Position numbers and translations under genes: made by a program. This document shows positions 12,239-39,616 of a stretch of DNA of 52,918 bases, piece after piece. Each line of letters begins with the position of its first letter. Position 1 is the first letter of the stretch. The stretch lies in the NCBI GenBank assembly GCA_038064935.1, contig JBBTRZ010000017.1, positions 1 through 52,918 on the forward strand. The letters are read 5' to 3'. The notes beneath the pieces are model-generated. The model did not search any database. It was not told the origin of the DNA and saw nothing but the letters and a program-made list of their open reading frames with translations. Origin of the DNA: Patescibacteria group bacterium. Its GTDB lineage: Bacteria; Patescibacteriota; Minisyncoccia; Phycocordibacterales; JACOZG01.

Positions 12239-14638
12239 TTATTTCCCGTGGCACTTCTTGTATTTCTTGCCACTGCCGCAGGGGCAGAGATCGTTGCGGC
12301 CAACTTTTTTCACATTGCCCGATTGAGCCAAATTAATTATTGGTTTAACCTGCAGAGTTCGACCTTGGGGATCGGTTGAACCTGGGACGGCCAGTTGCTT
12401 CATCGCGGCCGCCACTTCCTCGTTCATCGCCTGTTCCATCTGTTTGAAAAGTTGTAACCCCTCGCGTTTGTATTCCACAAAGGGATCGCGTTGACCGTAG
12501 GCCCGCAAGCGAACACTCTGTTTGAGATAATCCATCGCCTCGAGATGATCCACCCACAGCCGATCTATACTCTGGAGCAAAATCTGCCTCTCGGGCCCGC
12601 TTCGCTGAATCGAGGCGAGCCTGTTGCCAAAAAGAATTTCTTGCCGGCGGCGATACATCGTCACCCGTTGATGATTCAAGACGGTGTCGTATTCGAGTAG
12701 GTGATGACGCAAGTCGAAATTGAAGCCCTCAATCTTCCCCTGCGCGCTCTCGATCGCCCGAGCGACGAGACGATTCTCGATTGGCTGATCTTCCGGCACC
12801 CCGAGCCGACGCATCATCCCCTTGATTTTATCCGAGACGAACACTCGAGCCAAATTATCATCGAAGGAAATATAAAATTGGGTGGTGCCCGGATCGCCCT
12901 GCCGCCCCGAGCGCCCGCGAAGTTGATTATCAATCCGCCGCGCTTCGTGCCGTTCGGTCCCCAAAACGAAGAGACCACCGAGCCGCCGTACCTCGTCCAT
13001 CTCCGCCGCCGTCGCAAGCGCCCCGCCTAACTTGATGTCGACACCGCGGCCAGCTAAGTTCGTGGCAATCACCACACTCCCTTTCCGACCGGCTTCAGCG
13101 ATAATCGCCCCTTCTTCTTCGTGATTCTTGGCATTCAAAAGTCGATGGGGCACACCTTCGCGTTTCAGATGAGCGGAGACTAGCTCGTTCTTCTCGATTG
13201 ATACTGTCCCCACGAGAACCGGCTGGCCGCTAAGATGGAGTTCTTTCAAGCGCCGTGCGACAGCCAGCAACTTCCCAGCTTCAGTTTGAAAAACTAAATC
13301 CGTAAGATCCGCTCGCTGGCTGGAACGATTGGTCGGAATGCTCATGACCTCCAGACCATAAACCTTATGAAACTCTTCGGCCGAGGTCAGAGCGGTACCC
13401 GTCATTCCAGCGAGCTTACCGTAGAGCTTGAAATAATTCTGGAGCGTCACGCTGGCATAAGTTCGTGACTCGTCTTTAATCGCTACTCGCTCCTTCGCCT
13501 CGATCGCTTGATGCAAGCCGTCCGACCACCGCCGCCCGGGCTGAAGTCGGCCGGTGAATTCGTCAACAATTATTATCTCGCCGTTTTTAACCACATAGTC
13601 ATGGTCGCGATTGAAGAGAGCTTTGGCGCGTAAGGCGGTCTCGAGATGATGCACATACTTGATGCCTAAATCGGTGTAAAGATTATCAACCTGAAGCGCG
13701 CGTTCGGCGCGGGCAATGCCCGCTTCGGTGACGCTAATCGTTTTCAATTTTTCATCCACCACATAATCAGTGACGGATTCATAAGTTTCCACCAACTTGG
13801 CGAAAGTGAGATATAAACTGTCGGACGAGGCGATCGGCGCCGAGATAATGAGTGGCGTGCGCGCTTCGTCAATCAAGACCGAATCAACTTCATCAACGAT
13901 CGCGAAGTGGTGCGTTGGTCTTGAGGGCCCGCCTTGACTCGGCGAGGCAGGGAAAATAATTTGCGAGACTTGGCTGGGTTCATGGGCCAGATTATCGCGC
14001 AGATAATCGAAGCCGAATTCGTTGTTGGTACCGTAAGTGATGTCGGCTTCATACGCCTCACGACGAGTGCACGGTTTCAAAAATTCATAGAACACTTGGT
14101 AACTGCCGCTCTGATCGCGCGCCGGATCAACTTCGTTGTGACTCGCGTCGTAACGATAGGAAGCCTCGTGATTAATTACGCCAACTGACAATCCGAGAAG
14201 ATCATAAATTTGTCCCATCCACACCGCGTCGCGGCGCGCAAGGTAATCATTAACGGTCACCACATGCACGCCGCGAGCTGGAAGAGCGTTCAGGTAAGCG
14301 GCTAAGGTGGTGACTAGAGTTTTTCCTTCCCCCGTCTTCATCTCGGCGATTTTTCCCTGATGCAAAATAATGCCGCCCAAGATCTGGACATCGAAGTGCC
14401 GCTGTTTGAGCGTTCGCTTGGCCGATTCACGCACCACAGCAAAGGCCTCGGGCAATAGATCATCAAGTGTTGCACCTTCTCCTAAACGACGCCTGAAATC
14501 AGCCGTTTTCGCCCGTAAGTCCGCATCCAAAAGTTGAGCTAATTGCGACTCCAACTCGTTCACGGCCACGACTACGGATTCAAGGGAGCGCAGGTGCCGA
14601 TCGCTCGCGGTGCCAAAAATTTTCCCGAGGAGTGACAT
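12239..14638 (-). CDS. secA: Preprotein translocase ATPase SecA
   Basis: 799 aa with MKTGEGKT, VDEVDSVLIDEARTPLIIS, TNLAGRGVDI, and the C-terminal zinc finger CPCGSGKKYKKCHG. Confidence 0.97.
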   Translation of the reverse strand: MSLLGKIFGTASDRHLRSLESVVVAVNELESQLAQLLDADLRAKTADFRRRLGEGATLDDLLPEAFAVVRESAKRTLKQRHFDVQILGGIILHQGKIAEMKTGEGKTLVTTLAAYLNALPARGVHVVTVNDYLARRDAVWMGQIYDLLGLSVGVINHEASYRYDASHNEVDPARDQSGSYQVFYEFLKPCTRREAYEADITYGTNNEFGFDYLRDNLAHEPSQVSQIIFPASPSQGGPSRPTHHFAIVDEVDSVLIDEARTPLIISAPIASSDSLYLTFAKLVETYESVTDYVVDEKLKTISVTEAGIARAERALQVDNLYTDLGIKYVHHLETALRAKALFNRDHDYVVKNGEIIIVDEFTGRLQPGRRWSDGLHQAIEAKERVAIKDESRTYASVTLQNYFKLYGKLAGMTGTALTSAEEFHKVYGLEVMSIPTNRSSQRADLTDLVFQTEAGKLLAVARRLKELHLSGQPVLVGTVSIEKNELVSAHLKREGVPHRLLNAKNHEEEGAIIAEAGRKGSVVIATNLAGRGVDIKLGGALATAAEMDEVRRLGGLFVLGTERHEARRIDNQLRGRSGRQGDPGTTQFYISFDDNLARVFVSDKIKGMMRRLGVPEDQPIENRLVARAIESAQGKIEGFNFDLRHHLLEYDTVLNHQRVTMYRRRQEILFGNRLASIQRSGPERQILLQSIDRLWVDHLEAMDYLKQSVRLRAYGQRDPFVEYKREGLQLFKQMEQAMNEEVAAAMKQLAVPGSTDPQGRTLQVKPIINLAQSGNVKKVGRNDLCPCGSGKKYKKCHGK

Positions 14639-14672: not shown

Positions 14673-14704
14673 AAAATCTCTTCGCCAGCTGGCGAAGAGA
14701 TTTT
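14673..14704. terminator. Perfect 32-nt palindrome; candidate bidirectional intrinsic terminator
   Basis: The sequence is AAAATCTCTTCGCCAGCTGGCGAAGAGATTTT. It forms a 10-bp GC-rich stem with an AGCT loop, flanked by A4 and T4 so that a U-run follows the stem on either strand. It lies 35 nt upstream of the secA start. Confidence 0.55.
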
Positions 14705-15136: not shown

Positions 15137-16657
15137 TCACGCCTTGAGGAGCTGTCGAATTTCTTCGTAGTCTTCGGCGTAGGCGGCGATGAGGTTGACT
15201 AGTTTCTCTTTGGCGAGACCCAGCTCCTCCTTCTCCACTTCTTTGAGCTCAAGCAATTGCTCGAAACTGAAGTGCGCTGTCGGATCAACTACCTCTTCTG
15301 GTTCCATCGCTTGAGTTTTTTCCCTAATTAATTTCTCGGCGACCGTGATGGGATAAGCGGTGAAAAAGTTATTGAGCGCTCGGATAATGTCGAAGTCGGG
15401 GGCCAGCCGAACGGCCACTATATCAGCAATAATCAGAGTGCGGAAGAAGAGGGCGATCTCGCGTGGTAGGTGAATTTGATAATCACTAAGTTTGAGTAAT
15501 AGTCGCGAACAGACCAAGGAGGAAGTCGGTGGACCTTCACTCGCTACGGTTCGGAGCTCATACCATGGGGCTAAAATCTCTTCAAGATCAGCTTGCAAAT
15601 TATCTACCATAATCTCTCCCACCTTGCCGATCACTTTAGCATAACGCTTATAAGTGGCTGGCTCTCTCTCCTTAAACCGATCAATTTTATCCGAGACCAG
15701 CGCTTGGCCGAAATAAAGAAAGTGTTTGCTGGCGAAAGCGAGATCGCGGCGCGCCATCCCTTCCATAATCCGCAAGAGATCGAGTCGGACAGTCCCCACT
15801 TCACCCATGAGCCCGAAGTCGAAGTACCCGAGCCGATTATCGCGGGTGAAGAAGAGATTGGCCGGATGCGGATCGGCGTGAAAGAAGCCGTCAATGAAAT
15901 ACTGACGCATGATATCGAAAACGAAATAATAGGCCAATTCCTCTCGTTCAGCGGGCGTGTGCGCTAACCCCTCGAGGACGACCTCGACGGATAAGACATC
16001 CACCATGTCTTCACTCACTAAGACCCGCGCGGTCGACCACTCGGGGTAGACTCGCGGGATAATCGTTCGGGGTTCCGACTCGCTAAAATGTCCGAGTGCT
16101 TGGGAATTAAGCAACTCCTCGCGGAAGTTGAGTTCGCGCCGACTCCAAAGGATAAACTCCTCGACGACATCCTGAACCTGAAAAGAATCAAATACTCGTA
16201 AAAAACTAAGCAGACCAGAGATAAAACGCGCAAGCGTAAAGTCGAGTTCAAAAACCTGACGCACGCCGGGTCGCTGAATTTTAACCACCACCTTGGCTCC
16301 ATCGATAAGCACGGCCCGATAAACTTGAGAGATTGAGGCGGAAGCAATCGGCACCGGATCAAAAGTTTTAAATGCCAATTCCGGCGAAAGGCCAAGTTCT
16401 TCGATGAAAACTTGTCGCATCGCGGCATCGGGCGACACCGCCACCCGCGACAAGAGATTGAGAAGTTCGTTGGCATAGCGCGGCGAAATTAAATCATGCC
16501 GGAGCGAAAGGATTTGGCCGAGCTTGAGGAAAGCGCCGCCTGCGCGTTCGAAGAAGAAACGAAGACGGACTTCCCGGCTAACCCCGCGTTCGAGTAGGAG
16601 GCGCGCGCCAATCCGACCGATAGCCCAAAACCTTTTTAAGAAATTTAGCCAGCTCAT
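15137..16657 (-). CDS. ABC1/UbiB-family atypical protein kinase
   Basis: 506 aa with the motifs ASASISQVYRAVLIDGAKVVVKIQRPGV, HADPHPANLF and DFGLMGE. Confidence 0.9.
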   Translation of the reverse strand: MSWLNFLKRFWAIGRIGARLLLERGVSREVRLRFFFERAGGAFLKLGQILSLRHDLISPRYANELLNLLSRVAVSPDAAMRQVFIEELGLSPELAFKTFDPVPIASASISQVYRAVLIDGAKVVVKIQRPGVRQVFELDFTLARFISGLLSFLRVFDSFQVQDVVEEFILWSRRELNFREELLNSQALGHFSESEPRTIIPRVYPEWSTARVLVSEDMVDVLSVEVVLEGLAHTPAEREELAYYFVFDIMRQYFIDGFFHADPHPANLFFTRDNRLGYFDFGLMGEVGTVRLDLLRIMEGMARRDLAFASKHFLYFGQALVSDKIDRFKEREPATYKRYAKVIGKVGEIMVDNLQADLEEILAPWYELRTVASEGPPTSSLVCSRLLLKLSDYQIHLPREIALFFRTLIIADIVAVRLAPDFDIIRALNNFFTAYPITVAEKLIREKTQAMEPEEVVDPTAHFSFEQLLELKEVEKEELGLAKEKLVNLIAAYAEDYEEIRQLLKA

Positions 16658-16822: not shown

Positions 16823-17068
16823 AATATATTTTATTTTCTCCGACCCAAGGTTGGCCAGCGGGTGCGAGCTCCAAAAACTAAATGTCTTTATGTGAGTGCG
16901 ACCGCCGGCCAACATTGGCCCCGAAAGATTATGGCTAAAGTATAGTTAATTACTAGAAGGCACGCAAATCCCGTCGTACCAGTGATGGCAGACGGGACTT
17001 ACGCAAGACATCTAACTTATTGTGGCTCGTCCTCCACCCGAGGTGGAAGAGAAGCACTCACGATGGGC

Positions 17069-26391: not shown

Positions 26392-27525
26392 TCATTTTAT
26401 AAATCGGAATGTGGAAAGAATTTTGTTCAGAATATTAAAATTGGCGCTATCACCATAAATATAAAAGGTTAGAAGACGAGTCTTTTCTTTATTCAACGGA
26501 ATCGTGTATTCCACACTCTCGATGCTACCACTTGGCAATAAGTCACGGTCAGGACTTTTGATAACTTCATTTTCGCCGATCATCACTTTAGAAAAACCTT
26601 TTTTCTTGAGACTGGCATTATCTTGTTCACCGATCCATTTGTTTTCATCATTGTACAAAATTGCAAGCTGAATTATGTTATAACCAGTTCTAGATTCTAA
26701 TGCTTGGTTTCCTTGGTTATCAACACCATAGAAGTCTTCTCCTTCTGGATAATTGCGCAATCTAGATACGCCGTCTCTTTCTAACTCCTGAGGTGCTTCA
26801 TTCCTATATTCCGGTGGATACTTAAACTCAAACCCATATTTATCATTCCGATAAGTTTTCCAGCCTTCTACCCCCTCCGAACCTCCCCCCAAGGGGGAGG
26901 TGTAAGTTCCCTCCCCTTCGGGGAGGGCGGAGGGTGGGGTTATGTTTTTCCCCTGCCACAGCCAATAGCCGCCGATGATGAGCAGGACCGGAAGAATAAT
27001 TAAAAAGATGCCGGATTTTGATTTAGGTGTGTCAACACTCGGTGTTGACGATGGCTCGGTTGGTGGTAGTACTTGGTTTGATTCTAAGTTTTGATCGTCC
27101 ATAATTATTATCTTATCATATACTCTTGGGTTTTCTTTCAAATCTTTGTATATGTCTAAAATGAAACCTAATAATGAAATTAATAGAGCTGGCGGGTTAA
27201 CATATCCTTTGAAAAAATCAAAGTTAGCAATATCTAAGAAACCAATGATGATTAACAGAAATAGTAAAGGTCCGTGTTCTGCCCAATAAACTCTTTTTCT
27301 GTTTATTTTTATTATTTTGAAATCTAAAAAAATTGTTTTTGCTGAAAGAACTATTATTATTATGAGCAGTATTGTCGGATATTTTAATTGAAAGTGAAAA
27401 ATTCCGTAAATTAGAATTAGATAGATGAATAACCATACCAAATAAACTTTTCTTACACGTTTCATTCCTGGAAAATTCATAAAGAGATGAGTAGTGATAT
27501 GGCTCAATGCTACCACACCCCACAT
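26392..27525 (-). CDS. Hypothetical membrane protein (AT-rich gene) carrying a GC-rich in-frame insert
   Basis: 377 aa with several N-terminal TM helices and a C-terminal soluble domain. I recognise no family. The start abuts the uvrB stop. Confidence 0.65.
   Translation of the reverse strand: MWGVVALSHITTHLFMNFPGMKRVRKVYLVWLFIYLILIYGIFHFQLKYPTILLIIIIVLSAKTIFLDFKIIKINRKRVYWAEHGPLLFLLIIIGFLDIANFDFFKGYVNPPALLISLLGFILDIYKDLKENPRVYDKIIIMDDQNLESNQVLPPTEPSSTPSVDTPKSKSGIFLIILPVLLIIGGYWLWQGKNITPPSALPEGEGTYTSPLGGGSEGVEGWKTYRNDKYGFEFKYPPEYRNEAPQELERDGVSRLRNYPEGEDFYGVDNQGNQALESRTGYNIIQLAILYNDENKWIGEQDNASLKKKGFSKVMIGENEVIKSPDRDLLPSGSIESVEYTIPLNKEKTRLLTFYIYGDSANFNILNKILSTFRFIK
26870..26940. repeat. 71-nt GC-rich three-hairpin element, copy 1 (inside a CDS, in frame)
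   Basis: Plus strand: ACCCCCTCCG AA CCTCCCCC-CAA-GGGGGAGG TGTAAGTT CCCTCCCC-TTC-GGGGAGGG CGGAGGGTGGGGT. This gives two perfect 8-bp hairpins enclosed by an outer stem. It aligns to the reverse complement of 28255-28325. Confidence 0.75.
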
Positions 27526-29628
<2,103 letters not shown>

Positions 29629-29662
29629 ATCGTTCCACTCTAACTGTTTGACCAAACTTTTT

Positions 29663-29878: not shown

Positions 29879-31186
29879 TCAAGTTGATTGAGTGGATAAA
29901 TATCGGAGTAGAAATTGGTGACGAAAGGACTCGAAATTGTCTTGGAGAATTGACTCCCGAATCTGATGGAAAAATGAATTAAAGAAATAGAGATTATGAA
30001 TCGAGGCCAAAGTGGTTGAGAGCATTTCCTTTGATCGAAAGAGGTGACTCAAGTAAGCGCGGGAATAATTTAAACAAGTTAAGCAGTCACAATCAGCTTC
30101 AATCGGCTCAAAGTCAGTGGTAAATTTACTCGATGCTAAATTAAGTCGGCCACTCTTAGTCTCCACTGTCCCATGCCGACCCAACCGCGTGGGCGTGACG
30201 CAATCGAAACTGTCTACCCCAGCCGCGACCCCGGCCAAAATATCTTCCACCTCTCCAATCCCGAGCAAGTGTCGCGGACGATCGAGTGGCAAAAGTCTGT
30301 TCACGAGTCCAACCGAGCTGCCGATATCTTCTTTGCTAAAAGAACCACCGATTGCAAAACCGTCAACACCGAGCGTTGACATAAACCGCGCGCTCGACTC
30401 GCGCAAATCGAGGAAACGGCCACCTTGGATAATGCCAAAAAGAGCTTGACCAGCCGGCCCCAAGGACTCACCTTGGGGATAATTCTTAAGGTGAGTCCTT
30501 GGGGTTAATCGCTCATGTTCGGCCACACTTCGCTTCGCCCACTCGTGCGTGCGCTCAAGCGCCGTCGCTTGATAAGCGTAAGGCGCTTGCGGCGTCGTAC
30601 ATTCATCGAAGGCCAAAATAATGTCGGCGCCTAAATCGTGCTGAATCGCGATTGACGATTCCGGGGTCAAGCGATGCCGCGAGCCGTCCCGCGGCGAACG
30701 GAAGGTGACACCATCGTCGTCTATTTTTACGAACGATGACGGAGACAGGCGAGCAAAATTTTCATCGGCGTCGGAGCCCGCCCCGCTTCCGACGGGGTGG
30801 GTAAAGACGTGAAAATTTTGCTCGCCTGTCGGAGTCGGGGTTGGATCTTTGGCAACTTTAGACACCCCGCTCCCATACGCCGCGCCGAGGGAGAACACTT
30901 GAAAGCCGCCTGAATCGGTCATGATCGGTCCGGGCCAATTCATAAATTTGTGCAAGCCCCCGGCCGATTTAACGACCGCTTCACCCGGAGAGAGGTGAAG
31001 GTGGAAAGTGTTGGCAAAAATTACTTGAGTCCCCGCGGCCTGCGCTGCCTCGGGAGTGACGCCCTTAAACGCCGCCTGGGTCGCTACGGCCACGAACGCC
31101 GGGGTCTCAATTACCCCATGCGCCGTCTCAATTCTTCCCGCCCGCGCCAGTGAATTCCGACTGGTTTTCTCAACTGTAAATTTCAC
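29879..31186 (-). CDS. tgt: Queuine tRNA-ribosyltransferase
   Basis: 435 aa with TDSGGFQVFSLG, FDECT, and the zinc site CDCLTCLNYSRAYLSHL. A roughly 50-aa insertion follows SLG relative to the E. coli and Zymomonas enzymes. Confidence 0.93.
   Translation of the reverse strand: MKFTVEKTSRNSLARAGRIETAHGVIETPAFVAVATQAAFKGVTPEAAQAAGTQVIFANTFHLHLSPGEAVVKSAGGLHKFMNWPGPIMTDSGGFQVFSLGAAYGSGVSKVAKDPTPTPTGEQNFHVFTHPVGSGAGSDADENFARLSPSSFVKIDDDGVTFRSPRDGSRHRLTPESSIAIQHDLGADIILAFDECTTPQAPYAYQATALERTHEWAKRSVAEHERLTPRTHLKNYPQGESLGPAGQALFGIIQGGRFLDLRESSARFMSTLGVDGFAIGGSFSKEDIGSSVGLVNRLLPLDRPRHLLGIGEVEDILAGVAAGVDSFDCVTPTRLGRHGTVETKSGRLNLASSKFTTDFEPIEADCDCLTCLNYSRAYLSHLFRSKEMLSTTLASIHNLYFFNSFFHQIRESILQDNFESFRHQFLLRYLSTQST
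30745..30829. mobile_element. MITE-like palindromic element inside tgt (20-bp perfect terminal inverted repeats, CGGAG direct repeats on both flanks)
   Basis: ACAGGCGAGCAAAATTTTCA at 30745-30764 pairs with TGAAAATTTTGCTCGCCTGT at 30810-30829. An inner 7-bp hairpin is CGTCGGA/TCCGACG. CGGAG occurs at 30740-30744 and 30830-30834. The 85-bp element plus one 5-bp repeat makes 90 bp, or 30 codons. Confidence 0.55.
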
Positions 31187-37503: not shown

Positions 37504-38550
37504 TTAGACCTGTTTCGCTAGCAAACCGACAATGCGCAGGATGGCGAGTTCGAGTGGAAGTTCAGGGAGATAGGAACGGCCGAGTTCATCGTAAGTGACG
37601 AGCAATTCGCGGAGAATGAGCGAGAGCGCCGTTGATTCCGGGCGCGCGGCGAGTCGCTCAACGAATTGCCGCTCAGCCTCCGCAAATGGGGTGATGATTT
37701 CCCGGCCGACGGCCGGCGCGAATTTGAGAAACATCGCCGCGCGGATAAGGTTGAGTGTGAGCTTGAGAAAAATTCTCGGATCCCGATGCGCGTCAGCCGC
37801 GCGCTTCACGACGCCGAGCGTCGCGTCCGTGTCTCGGCTCACTAAACCTTCGATGAATTGAAAAATCAATTCCCCGGGCGGCGCGCCGGAGACGGAAGCG
37901 ACGAGGTCGGCCGTGATCTTTTTATTCGCCGTCGCGCCAAAAGCTTTTTGCAGCACCCCGAGCGCGTCGCGATAAGACCCGTCGCCGAGGAGAGCGATGA
38001 GGTCGGTCGCCGCGAGGTCGAGCTTTCGCCCTTCCGCCTTTGCTGCATTAGTGATTACCGTCCGCAGTTCATCGAGCCCGGGTTTGCGGAAAGTGAACGA
38101 CTGACAACGCGAGACGATAGTCTCGGGTAATTTGTGGAATTCAGTCGTTGCGAGGATAAAAATCACATGCGCCGGCGGTTCCTCGAGTGTCTTCAAGAGC
38201 GCGTTGAAGGCCTCTTTCGTCAACATGTGGACTTCATCTACGATGTAGACTTTGTATTTAGAGGCGAAGGGCAGAGTTAGCACCGCCTCCCGCAATTCGC
38301 GAATCTCATCAATCCCGCGACTCGAGGCGGCGTCAATCTCATAGAGATCGTCAGGCGAAGTGTCGAGCTCCCTGGCAAAAATGCGGGCGACGGAGGTCTT
38401 GCCCGTACCCCGCGCGCCGGCGAAGAGATAAGCGTGACCAACCGTCCCCTGCTTGATCGAACCTTCGAGTACTTGAATGATCGGTTCTTGACCAACCACT
38501 TCGGCAAAACTGCCGGGGCGATATTTACGATAGAGGGCGAGCTCGGACAT
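37504..38550 (-). CDS. dnaX: DNA polymerase III subunit gamma/tau (short form)
   Basis: 348 aa starting [22 protein letters not shown], with [16 protein letters not shown] and IVSRCQSF. Confidence 0.93.
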
Positions 38551-39616
38551 GGGAGTCAGTATAACACTCGTTAATTATTTCTTCGACTGTCGCCGCGTCC
38601 GGGGCCAACATAAGTTTTTGACGAAATTTATCGGCTCCGTCGACGCCGGACAAATACGCCTTAAAATGTTTCTTCATAATCGCAAAACTTTTATATTGTC
38701 CGAGTAATTGGTCGAAGAGTTTGGTGTGTTCGAGTAAAATGCGCAAACGCGTTTTCATGTCAGGCAAATCAGAATGTAATTGCCTGCTCCCGGTCAACGA
38801 GGGGAAGTCGCGACCAATCACATTCTGATTTGCCTTAAATAACCACGGGTTGCCGAAAATCGCCCGGCCGAGCATAGCGCCGTCAGCGCCCGTCTCCGCC
38901 ACACGGCGGTAAGCATCAGCGACATCGGTCAGATCGCCATTACCAAAAATTAAAGTCGAGCTACCGAGCGCGTCGCGAATCTTAATCGCCTCTTTAACTC
39001 GTTCCCAGCGCGCGGGTACTTTCGACATTTCTTTCCTAATTCGAGCATGAAGCGTAATCACGGCTGGGGCTTCGGCGAGGAGCGCGGGCAACCAATTTTC
39101 CAATTCATCGTGATTGTAACCAAGTCGCGTTTTCACCGAGACTGGCATCCGCCGGCCCGCCTTGCCGTCGGGCAGGCCGGCGGAGGCGACGCCGCGTTTC
39201 GCGGCGCGAATTATCTCTCGAGCGAGCGTCGGATTCTTAATCAAGGCCGCCCCAGCGCCCTGCCGCTCGATCGTCCGATCAGGGCAACCCATATTGATAT
39301 CGAGTCCATCGAAGCCGAGCGATGTTATCAATGCCGCGGCTTCTTCCATTTTAGTCGGATTGGCGCCGAAGAGCTGAGCAACGATTGGCCGTTCGGCCTC
39401 GGTAAACTGGAGATCAATCAGCAGTTTCTCGCGGCCAACGGGATGACACAAGCCATCAGCCGAGACAAACTCGGTCCACATCACAAACGGCGTCGCAGCC
39501 GACTCACTTTTACTATACTTCGCGATAATCCGCCGAAAAGCCGCATCCGTCACATCGGCCATCGGCGCGAGCGCCATAATTGGCCGCGACAATTTATTCC
39601 AAAAATTTTCCATCAA
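38525..39616 (-). CDS. tRNA-dihydrouridine synthase
   Basis: 363 aa with LAPMADVTDAAFRRII, DINMGCP and a TIM-barrel Dus pattern. It overlaps dnaX by 26 nt and rseP by 4 nt. Confidence 0.9.
   Translation of the reverse strand: MMENFWNKLSRPIMALAPMADVTDAAFRRIIAKYSKSESAATPFVMWTEFVSADGLCHPVGREKLLIDLQFTEAERPIVAQLFGANPTKMEEAAALITSLGFDGLDINMGCPDRTIERQGAGAALIKNPTLAREIIRAAKRGVASAGLPDGKAGRRMPVSVKTRLGYNHDELENWLPALLAEAPAVITLHARIRKEMSKVPARWERVKEAIKIRDALGSSTLIFGNGDLTDVADAYRRVAETGADGAMLGRAIFGNPWLFKANQNVIGRDFPSLTGSRQLHSDLPDMKTRLRILLEHTKLFDQLLGQYKSFAIMKKHFKAYLSGVDGADKFRQKLMLAPDAATVEEIINECYTDSHVRARPLS

Follow-up and report, generated by a model that had tools for sequence, protein, structure and literature searches.

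The window, a 52,918-nucleotide (nt) stretch of contig JBBTRZ010000017.1 from a Patescibacteria group bacterium, carries inside its tgt gene, coding for tRNA-guanine(34) transglycosylase (Tgt), an 87-nt hairpin that belongs to a dispersed family of palindromic repeats, here called family A. About 90 copies of this family were found overall in Paceibacteria-type metagenome contigs, some between genes and others in frame within unrelated conserved genes. The tgt hairpin is very probably a copy of this repeat that was inserted in frame, as had been proposed from the letters of this DNA alone (hereafter, the sequence-only reading), and the presence of the same core in relatives, both within other genes and between genes, bears out the idea of a frame-preserving insertion at the DNA level. 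Family A itself is probably a selfish repeat of Paceibacteria-type Patescibacteria, similar in its behaviour to the Rickettsia palindromic elements (RPE) and to the repetitive extragenic palindromes (REP).

The tgt hairpin and its repeat family

The product of the host gene matched Pfam PF01702 (E = 1e-129) in two stretches divided at the insert, and a protein 100% identical to it (P0001) is recorded as Tgt of a Patescibacteria group bacterium; its nearest relatives carry the label Candidatus Vogelbacteria. Comparison with the Protein Data Bank aligned it to Zymomonas Tgt (E = 1e-91) and left query residues 103-147 unaligned. Relative to the Zymomonas enzyme, the unaligned part comprises approximately 45 amino acids (aa) and not the 30 of the sequence-only reading. 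The gene, the hairpin and its parts are located as follows in the window.

29879-31186, minus strand: host gene tgt, 435 aa, open reading frame (ORF) unbroken through both of its hairpin inserts
30744-30830, minus strand: family-A hairpin element, 87 nt, recognized by perfect 21-nt arms, fold and covariance model
30810-30830, minus strand: 5' arm (coding strand) GACAGGCGAGCAAAATTTTCA, outer part copy-specific
30744-30764, minus strand: 3' arm (coding strand) TGAAAATTTTGCTCGCCTGTC, complement of the 5' arm
30765-30809, minus strand: conserved family core between the arms, CGTC-TTTACCC, variable apical hairpin, GGGCTCCGAC-GCCGA
30781-30797, minus strand: apical hairpin CCCCG…CGGGG inside the core, tip variable across family A
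30740-30744: flanking CGGAG (coding CTCCG), downstream of the element in gene orientation
30830-30834: flanking CGGAG (coding CTCCG), upstream of the element in gene orientation

The inverted repeat is real and perfect, yet its arms, separated by 45 nt, are 21 nt long and not 20 as first read, an extra G/C pair closing the stem; both CGGAG copies share one base with it. Up to three mismatches, the 21-mer arm matched only its two sites in the window, and two matches were obtained in none of 100 shuffled sequences. The RNA fold of the coding strand (-59.9 kcal/mol, against -31.1 ± 3.5 in shuffles; z = -8.2) is accompanied by the most extreme value of the window after GC correction in a sliding 100-nt scan (z = -5.45). 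An inner 7-bp hairpin had also been noted, and its complement CGTCGGA/TCCGACG does exist, but the minimum-energy fold takes CGUC/GACG and the apical CCCCG/CGGGG instead. The element lies inside the tgt ORF without a separate ORF, three of its six reading frames are open, and it encodes in frame Tgt residues 120-149 (TGEQNFHVFTHPVGSGAGSDADENFARLSP); a peptide segment from the insert reads TGEQNFHVFTHPVGSGAGSDADENFAR.

Searching with the exact 21-nt arm gave no other copy among 185,579 species genomes, so the arm is not the repeat unit; what recurs elsewhere is the core. The tgt DNA of the window was compared with that of eight close orthologues (loci L081-L088) and of one Taylorbacteria tgt (L002). 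A hairpin with a common core was present at the same tgt loop (loop 1) in the window and in L002, L081, L082, L083, L085, L086 and L087, with the consensus …AAAATTTTC-N-C-N-GC-TTTACCC-[variable apical hairpin]-GGGCTCCGAC-RC-N4-RAAAATTTT…, the core being enclosed by a AAAATTTT-containing stem. The outer stems were lineage-specific and near-perfect complements (GACAGGCGAGC… in the window, AACTCGCCCCAGC… in L081, GACCCCGAAAG… in L082 and GCGGGACTGGCAG… in L002), while the inner CGAGCAAAATTTTC of the 5' arm was common to the window and the orthologous copy in L083. Alignment of Tgt orthologues showed that tgt genes without the element at this site do exist, and the positions of family-A copies were patchy among close orthologues. 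The span of loop 1 from DSGGFQ to GVxFxS measured 74 residues in the window Tgt and typically 49-56 in Paceibacteria Tgt among the matches listed; in Zymomonas Tgt the span is taken to be 25 residues, the alignment itself showing the gap only. A broad search of genome contigs for tgt relatives listed matches of at most 55% identity.

Metagenomes were scanned with the pattern TTTACCC-N3-30-GGGCTCCGACRC-N4-RAAAAT, which yielded 79 loci, with 2-4 copies on single contigs and four on a 593-kb contig (Ga0076170_11). A covariance model (R1), built from 49 non-redundant copies, found 95 matches on these 79 loci and scored the window element at 76.7 bits (E = 4e-14); when applied to 80 unselected Paceibacteria tgt loci (approximately 7 kb each), it found copies inside tgt only. 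In the alignment of the 49 copies, conservation was highest in the AAAATTTT stem and in the internal loop, at its unpaired bases TTTA and CTCCGAC. No family of Rfam matched the element (only a tRNA passed the gathering threshold, and permissive thresholds gave noise, such as mir-186 at E = 0.44), and scanned viral contigs yielded 0 matches to family A. An assembly artefact was ruled out, as independent assemblies from NCBI, ENA, Logan and JGI show the same architecture. The size of the element and the lack of an Rfam match ruled out inteins and group I/II introns.

Of 64 non-redundant copies, 33 lay inside ORFs of at least 150 aa, and about half had no spanning ORF. Five of the latter were checked by hand: three were upstream of dnaK, one between gatC and gatA, and one between rpmE and a release-factor gene. 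The genic hosts, identified by Pfam, were UvrA, UvrB, UvrC, RecJ, RNase HII, LeuRS, TsaD, Tgt and an RluA-type pseudouridine synthase, and in these nine protein families domain matches were found on both sides of the insert, always in frame. All nine hosts are DNA-repair or tRNA/rRNA-handling enzymes, a pattern recognized post hoc that could mean either that low-expression genes tolerate the insert or that there is a genuine bias in targeting. Relative to local genes, 42 copies were co-oriented and 12 anti-oriented; for intergenic copies the figures were 20 and 7.

Host genes translate the DNA of family A in three or more frames or orientations, giving the peptides NFxRFTxxGSDxDxNF, FxxLYP…GLRHxQKF and, in antisense, GNFYTRRSPP…GKGKAEKIS. 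Since it is read in several frames and orientations and is also intergenic, family A is a repeat at the level of DNA rather than a motif of proteins, and a loop conserved at the protein level, the observation that was to speak against insertion, was ruled out on the same grounds. In an alignment of 30 Tgt orthologues, the stretch after GVSKVA was hypervariable, with recurrent peptides that depended on the frame (NF(H/R)RFTH..GSDADENFA, PRTVLKRVPQGQSLG, QGLSLGHPLKESPYD, PERPFGRAGDTDEN and RHDQKFSQVS). Moreover, some tgt genes carried two family-A copies, one per loop: L002 (2828-2923 and 3162-3259; sense and antisense, the loop-2 copy being inverted), L121 (6630-6719 and 6985-7082; both sense) and L153 (1663-1760 and 1986-2083; both antisense). 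Family A was found at tgt loop 2 in L019 and L039 as well as in L121 and L153. The three different combinations of orientation indicate that the same two tgt loops were colonised repeatedly and independently.

Arms, boundaries and protein context of the element

When the 49 copies were folded jointly with RNAalifold, a single helix of 19 pairs was obtained, with compensatory double changes at 15 of them. Standard pairs occupied 92.6% of helix cells (65.9% in column shuffles), and the covariation score was 0.642 versus 0.144 in shuffles, none of 500 of which reached it, and no more than 0.157 with partners slid by 1-3 columns. Changes were double-sided in 236 cells, while one-sided ones such as G·U accounted for approximately 13 of 927 cells, and the median number of Watson-Crick pairs per arm pair was 22.5. 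The outer 10-11 pairs showed all four Watson-Crick pair types across copies. Copies occupying the same host site differed mainly by paired changes (150 compensated double differences versus 75 other differences), as illustrated by GGCGGCACTCGG/CCGAGTGCCGCC in L002 and GGCGGTACTCGG/CCGAGTACCGCC in L153. Within L002, the arms of the two copies were related yet distinct, each complementary within itself; since they are related at unrelated sites, the arms are part of the element itself, and their derivation from the target site was ruled out. The near absence of G·U favours a symmetrising process at the DNA level over selection at the RNA level.

At loop 1 of tgt, two orthologues (L084, 507-677; L088, 10325-10444) kept only the right half of family A (…CCGACGCGGATGAAAATTTTGC…), the left half being replaced by a hairpin of a second family, family B, in L084 and by another GC hairpin in L088. 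These composite or decayed copies show that decay, and nested insertion or overwriting, occur at a loop 1 hot spot.

The boundaries of the element were anchored on the fold and on Watson-Crick pairing in the 49 copies. The three bases to the left of the stem were mostly T (35/49), T or C (40/49) and C (32/49), and those to the right T (31/49), T (28/49) and C (24/49), often followed by G/A-C-T-T. The window sequence CTCC|G…C|TCCG, which on the plus strand reads CGGAG, is therefore the local form of a family boundary motif, …C-T-Y-C | stem … stem | T-T-C-R…. Matching trinucleotides on both sides were found in 12 of the 49 copies (6.0 expected; 14 of 5000 permutations reached that number), and matching 4- or 5-mers in none of the 49. 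Hence the CGGAG pair pointed out in the sequence-only reading is present, but its interpretation as a 5-bp target-site duplication (TSD) found no support in the family. A 3-bp duplication with a preference for TTC is possible; a true target-site duplication is unproven.

At the protein level, an AlphaFold2 model of the window Tgt, based on a 30-sequence alignment, had a mean predicted local distance difference test (pLDDT) score of 81, and pLDDT fell below 50 only at residues 96-144 and 231-243, corresponding to the two insert loops. Both inserts are thus predicted to sit in disordered loops. The genic copies of family A that were examined, at least 33 non-redundant ones spread over nine host families, were all in the frame of the host and free of stops. 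Because every genic copy keeps the frame and lacks stops, the insert is probably translated, most likely being transcribed and read as a loop extension of approximately 30 residues that the enzyme would tolerate. That nothing more than translation and tolerance is involved is an expectation of moderate confidence. Most host gene types (tgt, rluA, uvrABC, recJ, rnhB) are dispensable and expressed at low levels in model bacteria, and low expression or dispensability would explain how a hairpin of -60 kcal/mol is tolerated.

Proposed explanation and its alternatives

We propose that family A is a selfish or near-neutral repeat whose copies lie in short intergenic spacers or in frame in conserved genes, and that selection would filter them to open frames and permissive loops, mostly in low-expression nucleic-acid enzymes. 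The window copy sits in a Tgt loop that is already expanded in the lineage and predicted to be disordered. The arms would be kept complementary by one arm templating the other in the DNA, either through intrastrand template switching (quasi-palindrome correction) or through a hairpin-templated step during spread. Such DNA-level templating is the likeliest explanation of the arms, since nearly all of their pairs are Watson-Crick and differences between same-site copies are mainly paired ones; selection at the RNA level fits less well. Template switching in particular as the process that maintains the arms is a tentative suggestion.

Several observations weigh against this proposal. The case for translation is drawn from the preservation of frame, and any copy disrupting its host gene would have been counted as intergenic, a class of which five copies were checked by hand. 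An allele of exactly this tgt without the 90 bp, that is, an empty site, was not found, so that the insertion boundaries and any TSD are putative. R1 found only one family-A copy in the 53-kb window, and identical or near-identical arms were not seen between different copies, so that any recent mobility is putative. No transposase or other mobilising gene and no parent insertion sequence (IS) was seen in the loci examined, in which no systematic search for them was made. In addition, stem positions that were not Watson-Crick were strand-asymmetric (A·C 93, G·T 11, other 28, in 50 non-redundant copies): only on the complement of the usual coding strand would these mismatches amount to wobbles (G·U/G·T). 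Part of the asymmetry comes from a C·A mismatch that is conserved beside the core, together with a 1-nt bulge. Plain template switching leaves the asymmetry between A·C and G·T unexplained, and both this asymmetry and the co-orientation with genes are ill-matched to simple neutrality. Finally, the covariation, the conserved unpaired loop and the roughly 3:1 co-orientation are also compatible with a functional structured element.

Such a functional element would be a cis-acting site in mRNA or single-stranded DNA, with an internal loop (CUUUA / CUCCGAC) bound by a cellular protein and a stem under selection. Its possible roles include regulating how low-abundance nucleic-acid enzymes are expressed or how stable their mRNAs are, processing by RNase III, or a part in nucleoid organization or replication, and it would be compatible with a selfish origin. 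The core remains invariant and unpaired while the stems covary, copies of the same genome have diverged in their arms and still pair, as expected of old but maintained hairpins, and the orientation bias extends to intergenic copies; the asymmetric mismatches and the shared character of the identified hosts point in the same direction. On the other hand, G·U pairs, normal in selected RNA stems, are nearly absent, one gene and loop can contain the element in either orientation and in several frames, and its positions are patchy among close orthologues; in L084 and L088 the copy at the shared site is half decayed or has been overwritten. Rfam gave no match, and the hosts, grouped post hoc, are mostly dispensable, low-expression and tolerant of insertions. 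On balance we regard a functional element as unlikely. An extension of this idea, which we consider less likely still, is that the hairpin families form a class defined by structure, in which the TTTA / CTCCGAC loop would be recognised by a dedicated single-strand-specific enzyme or RNA-binding protein and the arms regenerated by hairpin-templated synthesis, with a preference for, and perhaps regulation of, DNA-repair and tRNA/rRNA-modification genes.

The sequence-only reading had likened the insert to a miniature inverted-repeat transposable element (MITE), and part of this stands, as family A is small, dispersed and inserted, while the terminal inverted repeats (TIRs) of 20 bp on which the comparison was built are not a conserved feature of the family. 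As a classical MITE, the element would be a deletion derivative of a DDE-type IS, with TIRs bound by the transposase and CGGAG as a 5-bp TSD. Its small size, the lack of an own ORF, the perfect 21-nt terminal repeats and the 5-nt direct repeat of the window copy agree with this, as do the multiple dispersed copies in related genomes and the approximately two-fold enrichment of matching flanking trinucleotides. However, all four Watson-Crick types occur at each outer pair of the supposed TIR, the 4- or 5-nt duplication is confined to the window copy, and the T-Y-C/TTC bases are common to unrelated host sites, in the manner of a part of the element or of a target preference rather than of a variable TSD. 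A parent IS or transposase was likewise unseen, with the limit on that search given above. A classical MITE is therefore, in our judgement, very improbable.

A further alternative is that the segment is absent from the protein, either because a hairpin-guided reaction excises it from the mRNA and ligates the ends or because ribosomes bypass it, with CCG…CCG as take-off and landing codons and …DPTPTP|SSFVKIDDDGV as the resulting junction. Bypass elements, such as those of T4 gene 60 and the mitochondrial byp elements, are mobile hairpin inserts in coding sequence that do not necessarily keep the frame and typically have a stop after the take-off codon. The window copy is likewise bracketed by matching codons, as its very stable hairpin stands between identical in-frame CCG codons belonging to the 5-nt direct repeats, and its conceptual removal brings the loop near the length found in orthologues without the element. 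Yet all genic copies examined are open and in frame, which is expected only if they are translated, the putative take-off codon has no stop after it, the matching flanking codons are not family-wide (no 4- or 5-nt direct repeat in the 49 others), and no intron-like match was found in Rfam. We give this possibility hardly any credence.

Further hairpins in the window and relation to known repeats

The window contains other hairpins inside ORFs, all on the minus strand.

30458-30504, minus strand: family-B hairpin in tgt loop 2, 47 nt, 17-nt perfect arms CCCCAAGGACTCACCTT / AAGGTGAGTCCTTGGGG, 13-nt loop
28255-28325, minus strand: branched G-rich family-C hairpin in uvrB (27526-29655), in frame at the RPVV|YPGQIKDF loop
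26871-26939, minus strand: G-rich branched hairpin (CCCTCCCC…GGGGAGGG type) in a predicted membrane-protein ORF (26392-27525), encoding PPSALPEGEGTYTSPLGGGSEGV in frame
38761-38836, minus strand: long hairpin with a near-perfect stem in a tRNA-dihydrouridine-synthase-like (Dus-like) ORF (38525-39616), encoding KANQNVIGRDFPSLTGSRQLHSDLP after the conserved NPWLF
39146-39186, minus strand: hairpin with a 14-bp GC stem in the same Dus-like ORF (38525-39616), encoding ASAGLPDGKAGRRMP in frame

The family-B insert of tgt is unrelated to family A and encodes approximately TPRTHLKNYPQGESLGPA in frame (Tgt residues 228-246). Its general form is CAAGG-N5-CCTTAAGA-N5-CCCCAAGG-N5'-CCTTG, and it was found at tgt loop 2 (window, L083, L087 and L152), at tgt loop 1 (L084) and in uvrB (L088). 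Empty loop-2 sites, of the form WAKRSLxEHxRLGG(E/D)QALFG, were present in L081, L082, L084, L085 and L088. In viral contigs the family-B core had 3 matches, all without a hairpin and attributable to chance. The orthologous uvrB of L088 carries its family-B hairpin (approximately 13690-13745) at the same RPVV|YPGQIKDF loop that holds the family-C hairpin in the window, and the hairpin of the membrane-protein ORF resembles the uvrB element.

Two other structured regions were observed in the window. A perfect 32-nt palindrome (AAAATCTCTTCGCCAG|CTGGCGAAGAGATTTT, 14673-14704), in the spacer between the ORFs 12239-14638 and 15137-16657, looks like a bidirectional terminator and is unrelated to family A (11 bits with R1). 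At approximately 16830-17060, two adjoining 100-nt windows were structured (z = -3.9 and -4.5) and held short ORFs only; this region gave no Rfam match at E <= 1, no tRNA and no tmRNA.

The closest behavioural parallel to family A is provided by the RPE, in-frame palindromes in housekeeping genes (Ogata et al. 2000 Science 290:347, summarised in PMC10969869 and PMC6649704). Both are small hairpin repeats without a transposase, found in reduced genomes of small-genome, host-dependent bacteria, both intergenic and in frame in unrelated housekeeping genes, where they add a short peptide at places compatible with the fold. The likeness proposed is one of behaviour, the different phylum making sequence homology unlikely: family A is shorter (approximately 70-100 bp versus 100-150 bp) and has as its conserved part the internal loop and the core rather than the whole element. 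Its outer arms vary yet stay complementary, while RPEs reportedly lose repeat identity over time (PMC6649704). With the REP and bacterial interspersed mosaic elements, GTAG/CGTC-tagged palindromes associated with REP-associated tyrosine transposases (RAYT; PMC3733652), family A shares hairpins defined by structure, covarying stems, a small conserved single-stranded motif, many copies and a bias in orientation to genes. REPs, however, are 20-40 bp long and extragenic, whereas family A measures 66-96 nt with about half of its copies in coding sequence, and the GTAG/CGTC end tag is not conserved in it (its first bases are RCAG, GTAG, GCAT and others, with GTAG in few copies, e.g. L113 and L147).

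The QMITE1/2 of Coxiella burnetii and intragenic MITEs of the ERIC and BOX type (PMC5896051, PMC10969869) are likewise non-autonomous and sometimes in frame in host ORFs, but they have conserved TIRs and a TSD and lie mostly in intergenic DNA or at gene ends, in contrast to the common in-frame internal inserts and unconserved arms of family A. The coding palindromes of Nematomorpha mitochondria, for which maintenance by template switching has been proposed (PMC6649704), resemble family A in being perfect inverted repeats within genes whose arms evolve in concert by paired substitutions. Nevertheless, they derive from the gene's own sequence, are organellar and up to 284 bp long, and do not form a dispersed family with a shared core. 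Taken against these definitions, family A lacks the conserved TIRs of MITEs, the size, tag and extragenic location of REPs, and the freedom of frame of bypass elements. No description of comparable elements from Patescibacteria or from the Candidate Phyla Radiation turned up in the literature searched, whose coverage was incomplete, so this is not proof.

In-frame "selfish" palindromes have so far been regarded as largely a peculiarity of Rickettsia, a view that several unrelated hairpin families inside conserved enzymes of Patescibacteria, likewise tiny and dependent on hosts, would change. Colonisation of coding sequence by hairpin repeats may be a general outcome of genome reduction and weak selection, and such repeats may be a recurrent source of loop insertions in proteins. 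In practical terms, the inserts inflate and fragment the marker-gene alignments on which phylogenies of the Candidate Phyla Radiation are based, give annotated proteins loops that are hypervariable and of "low-complexity" type, and may trouble assembly or PCR. With its approximately 90 copies, same-site series, strong covariation and almost no G·U, family A represents an unusually clean natural data set on the maintenance of perfect palindromes, for which template switching, selection and a hairpin-templated mobility step are the candidates. If true, a class of hairpins recognised by their structure would represent a new mechanism of mobilisation or maintenance, or a new layer of post-transcriptional control, in reduced genomes.

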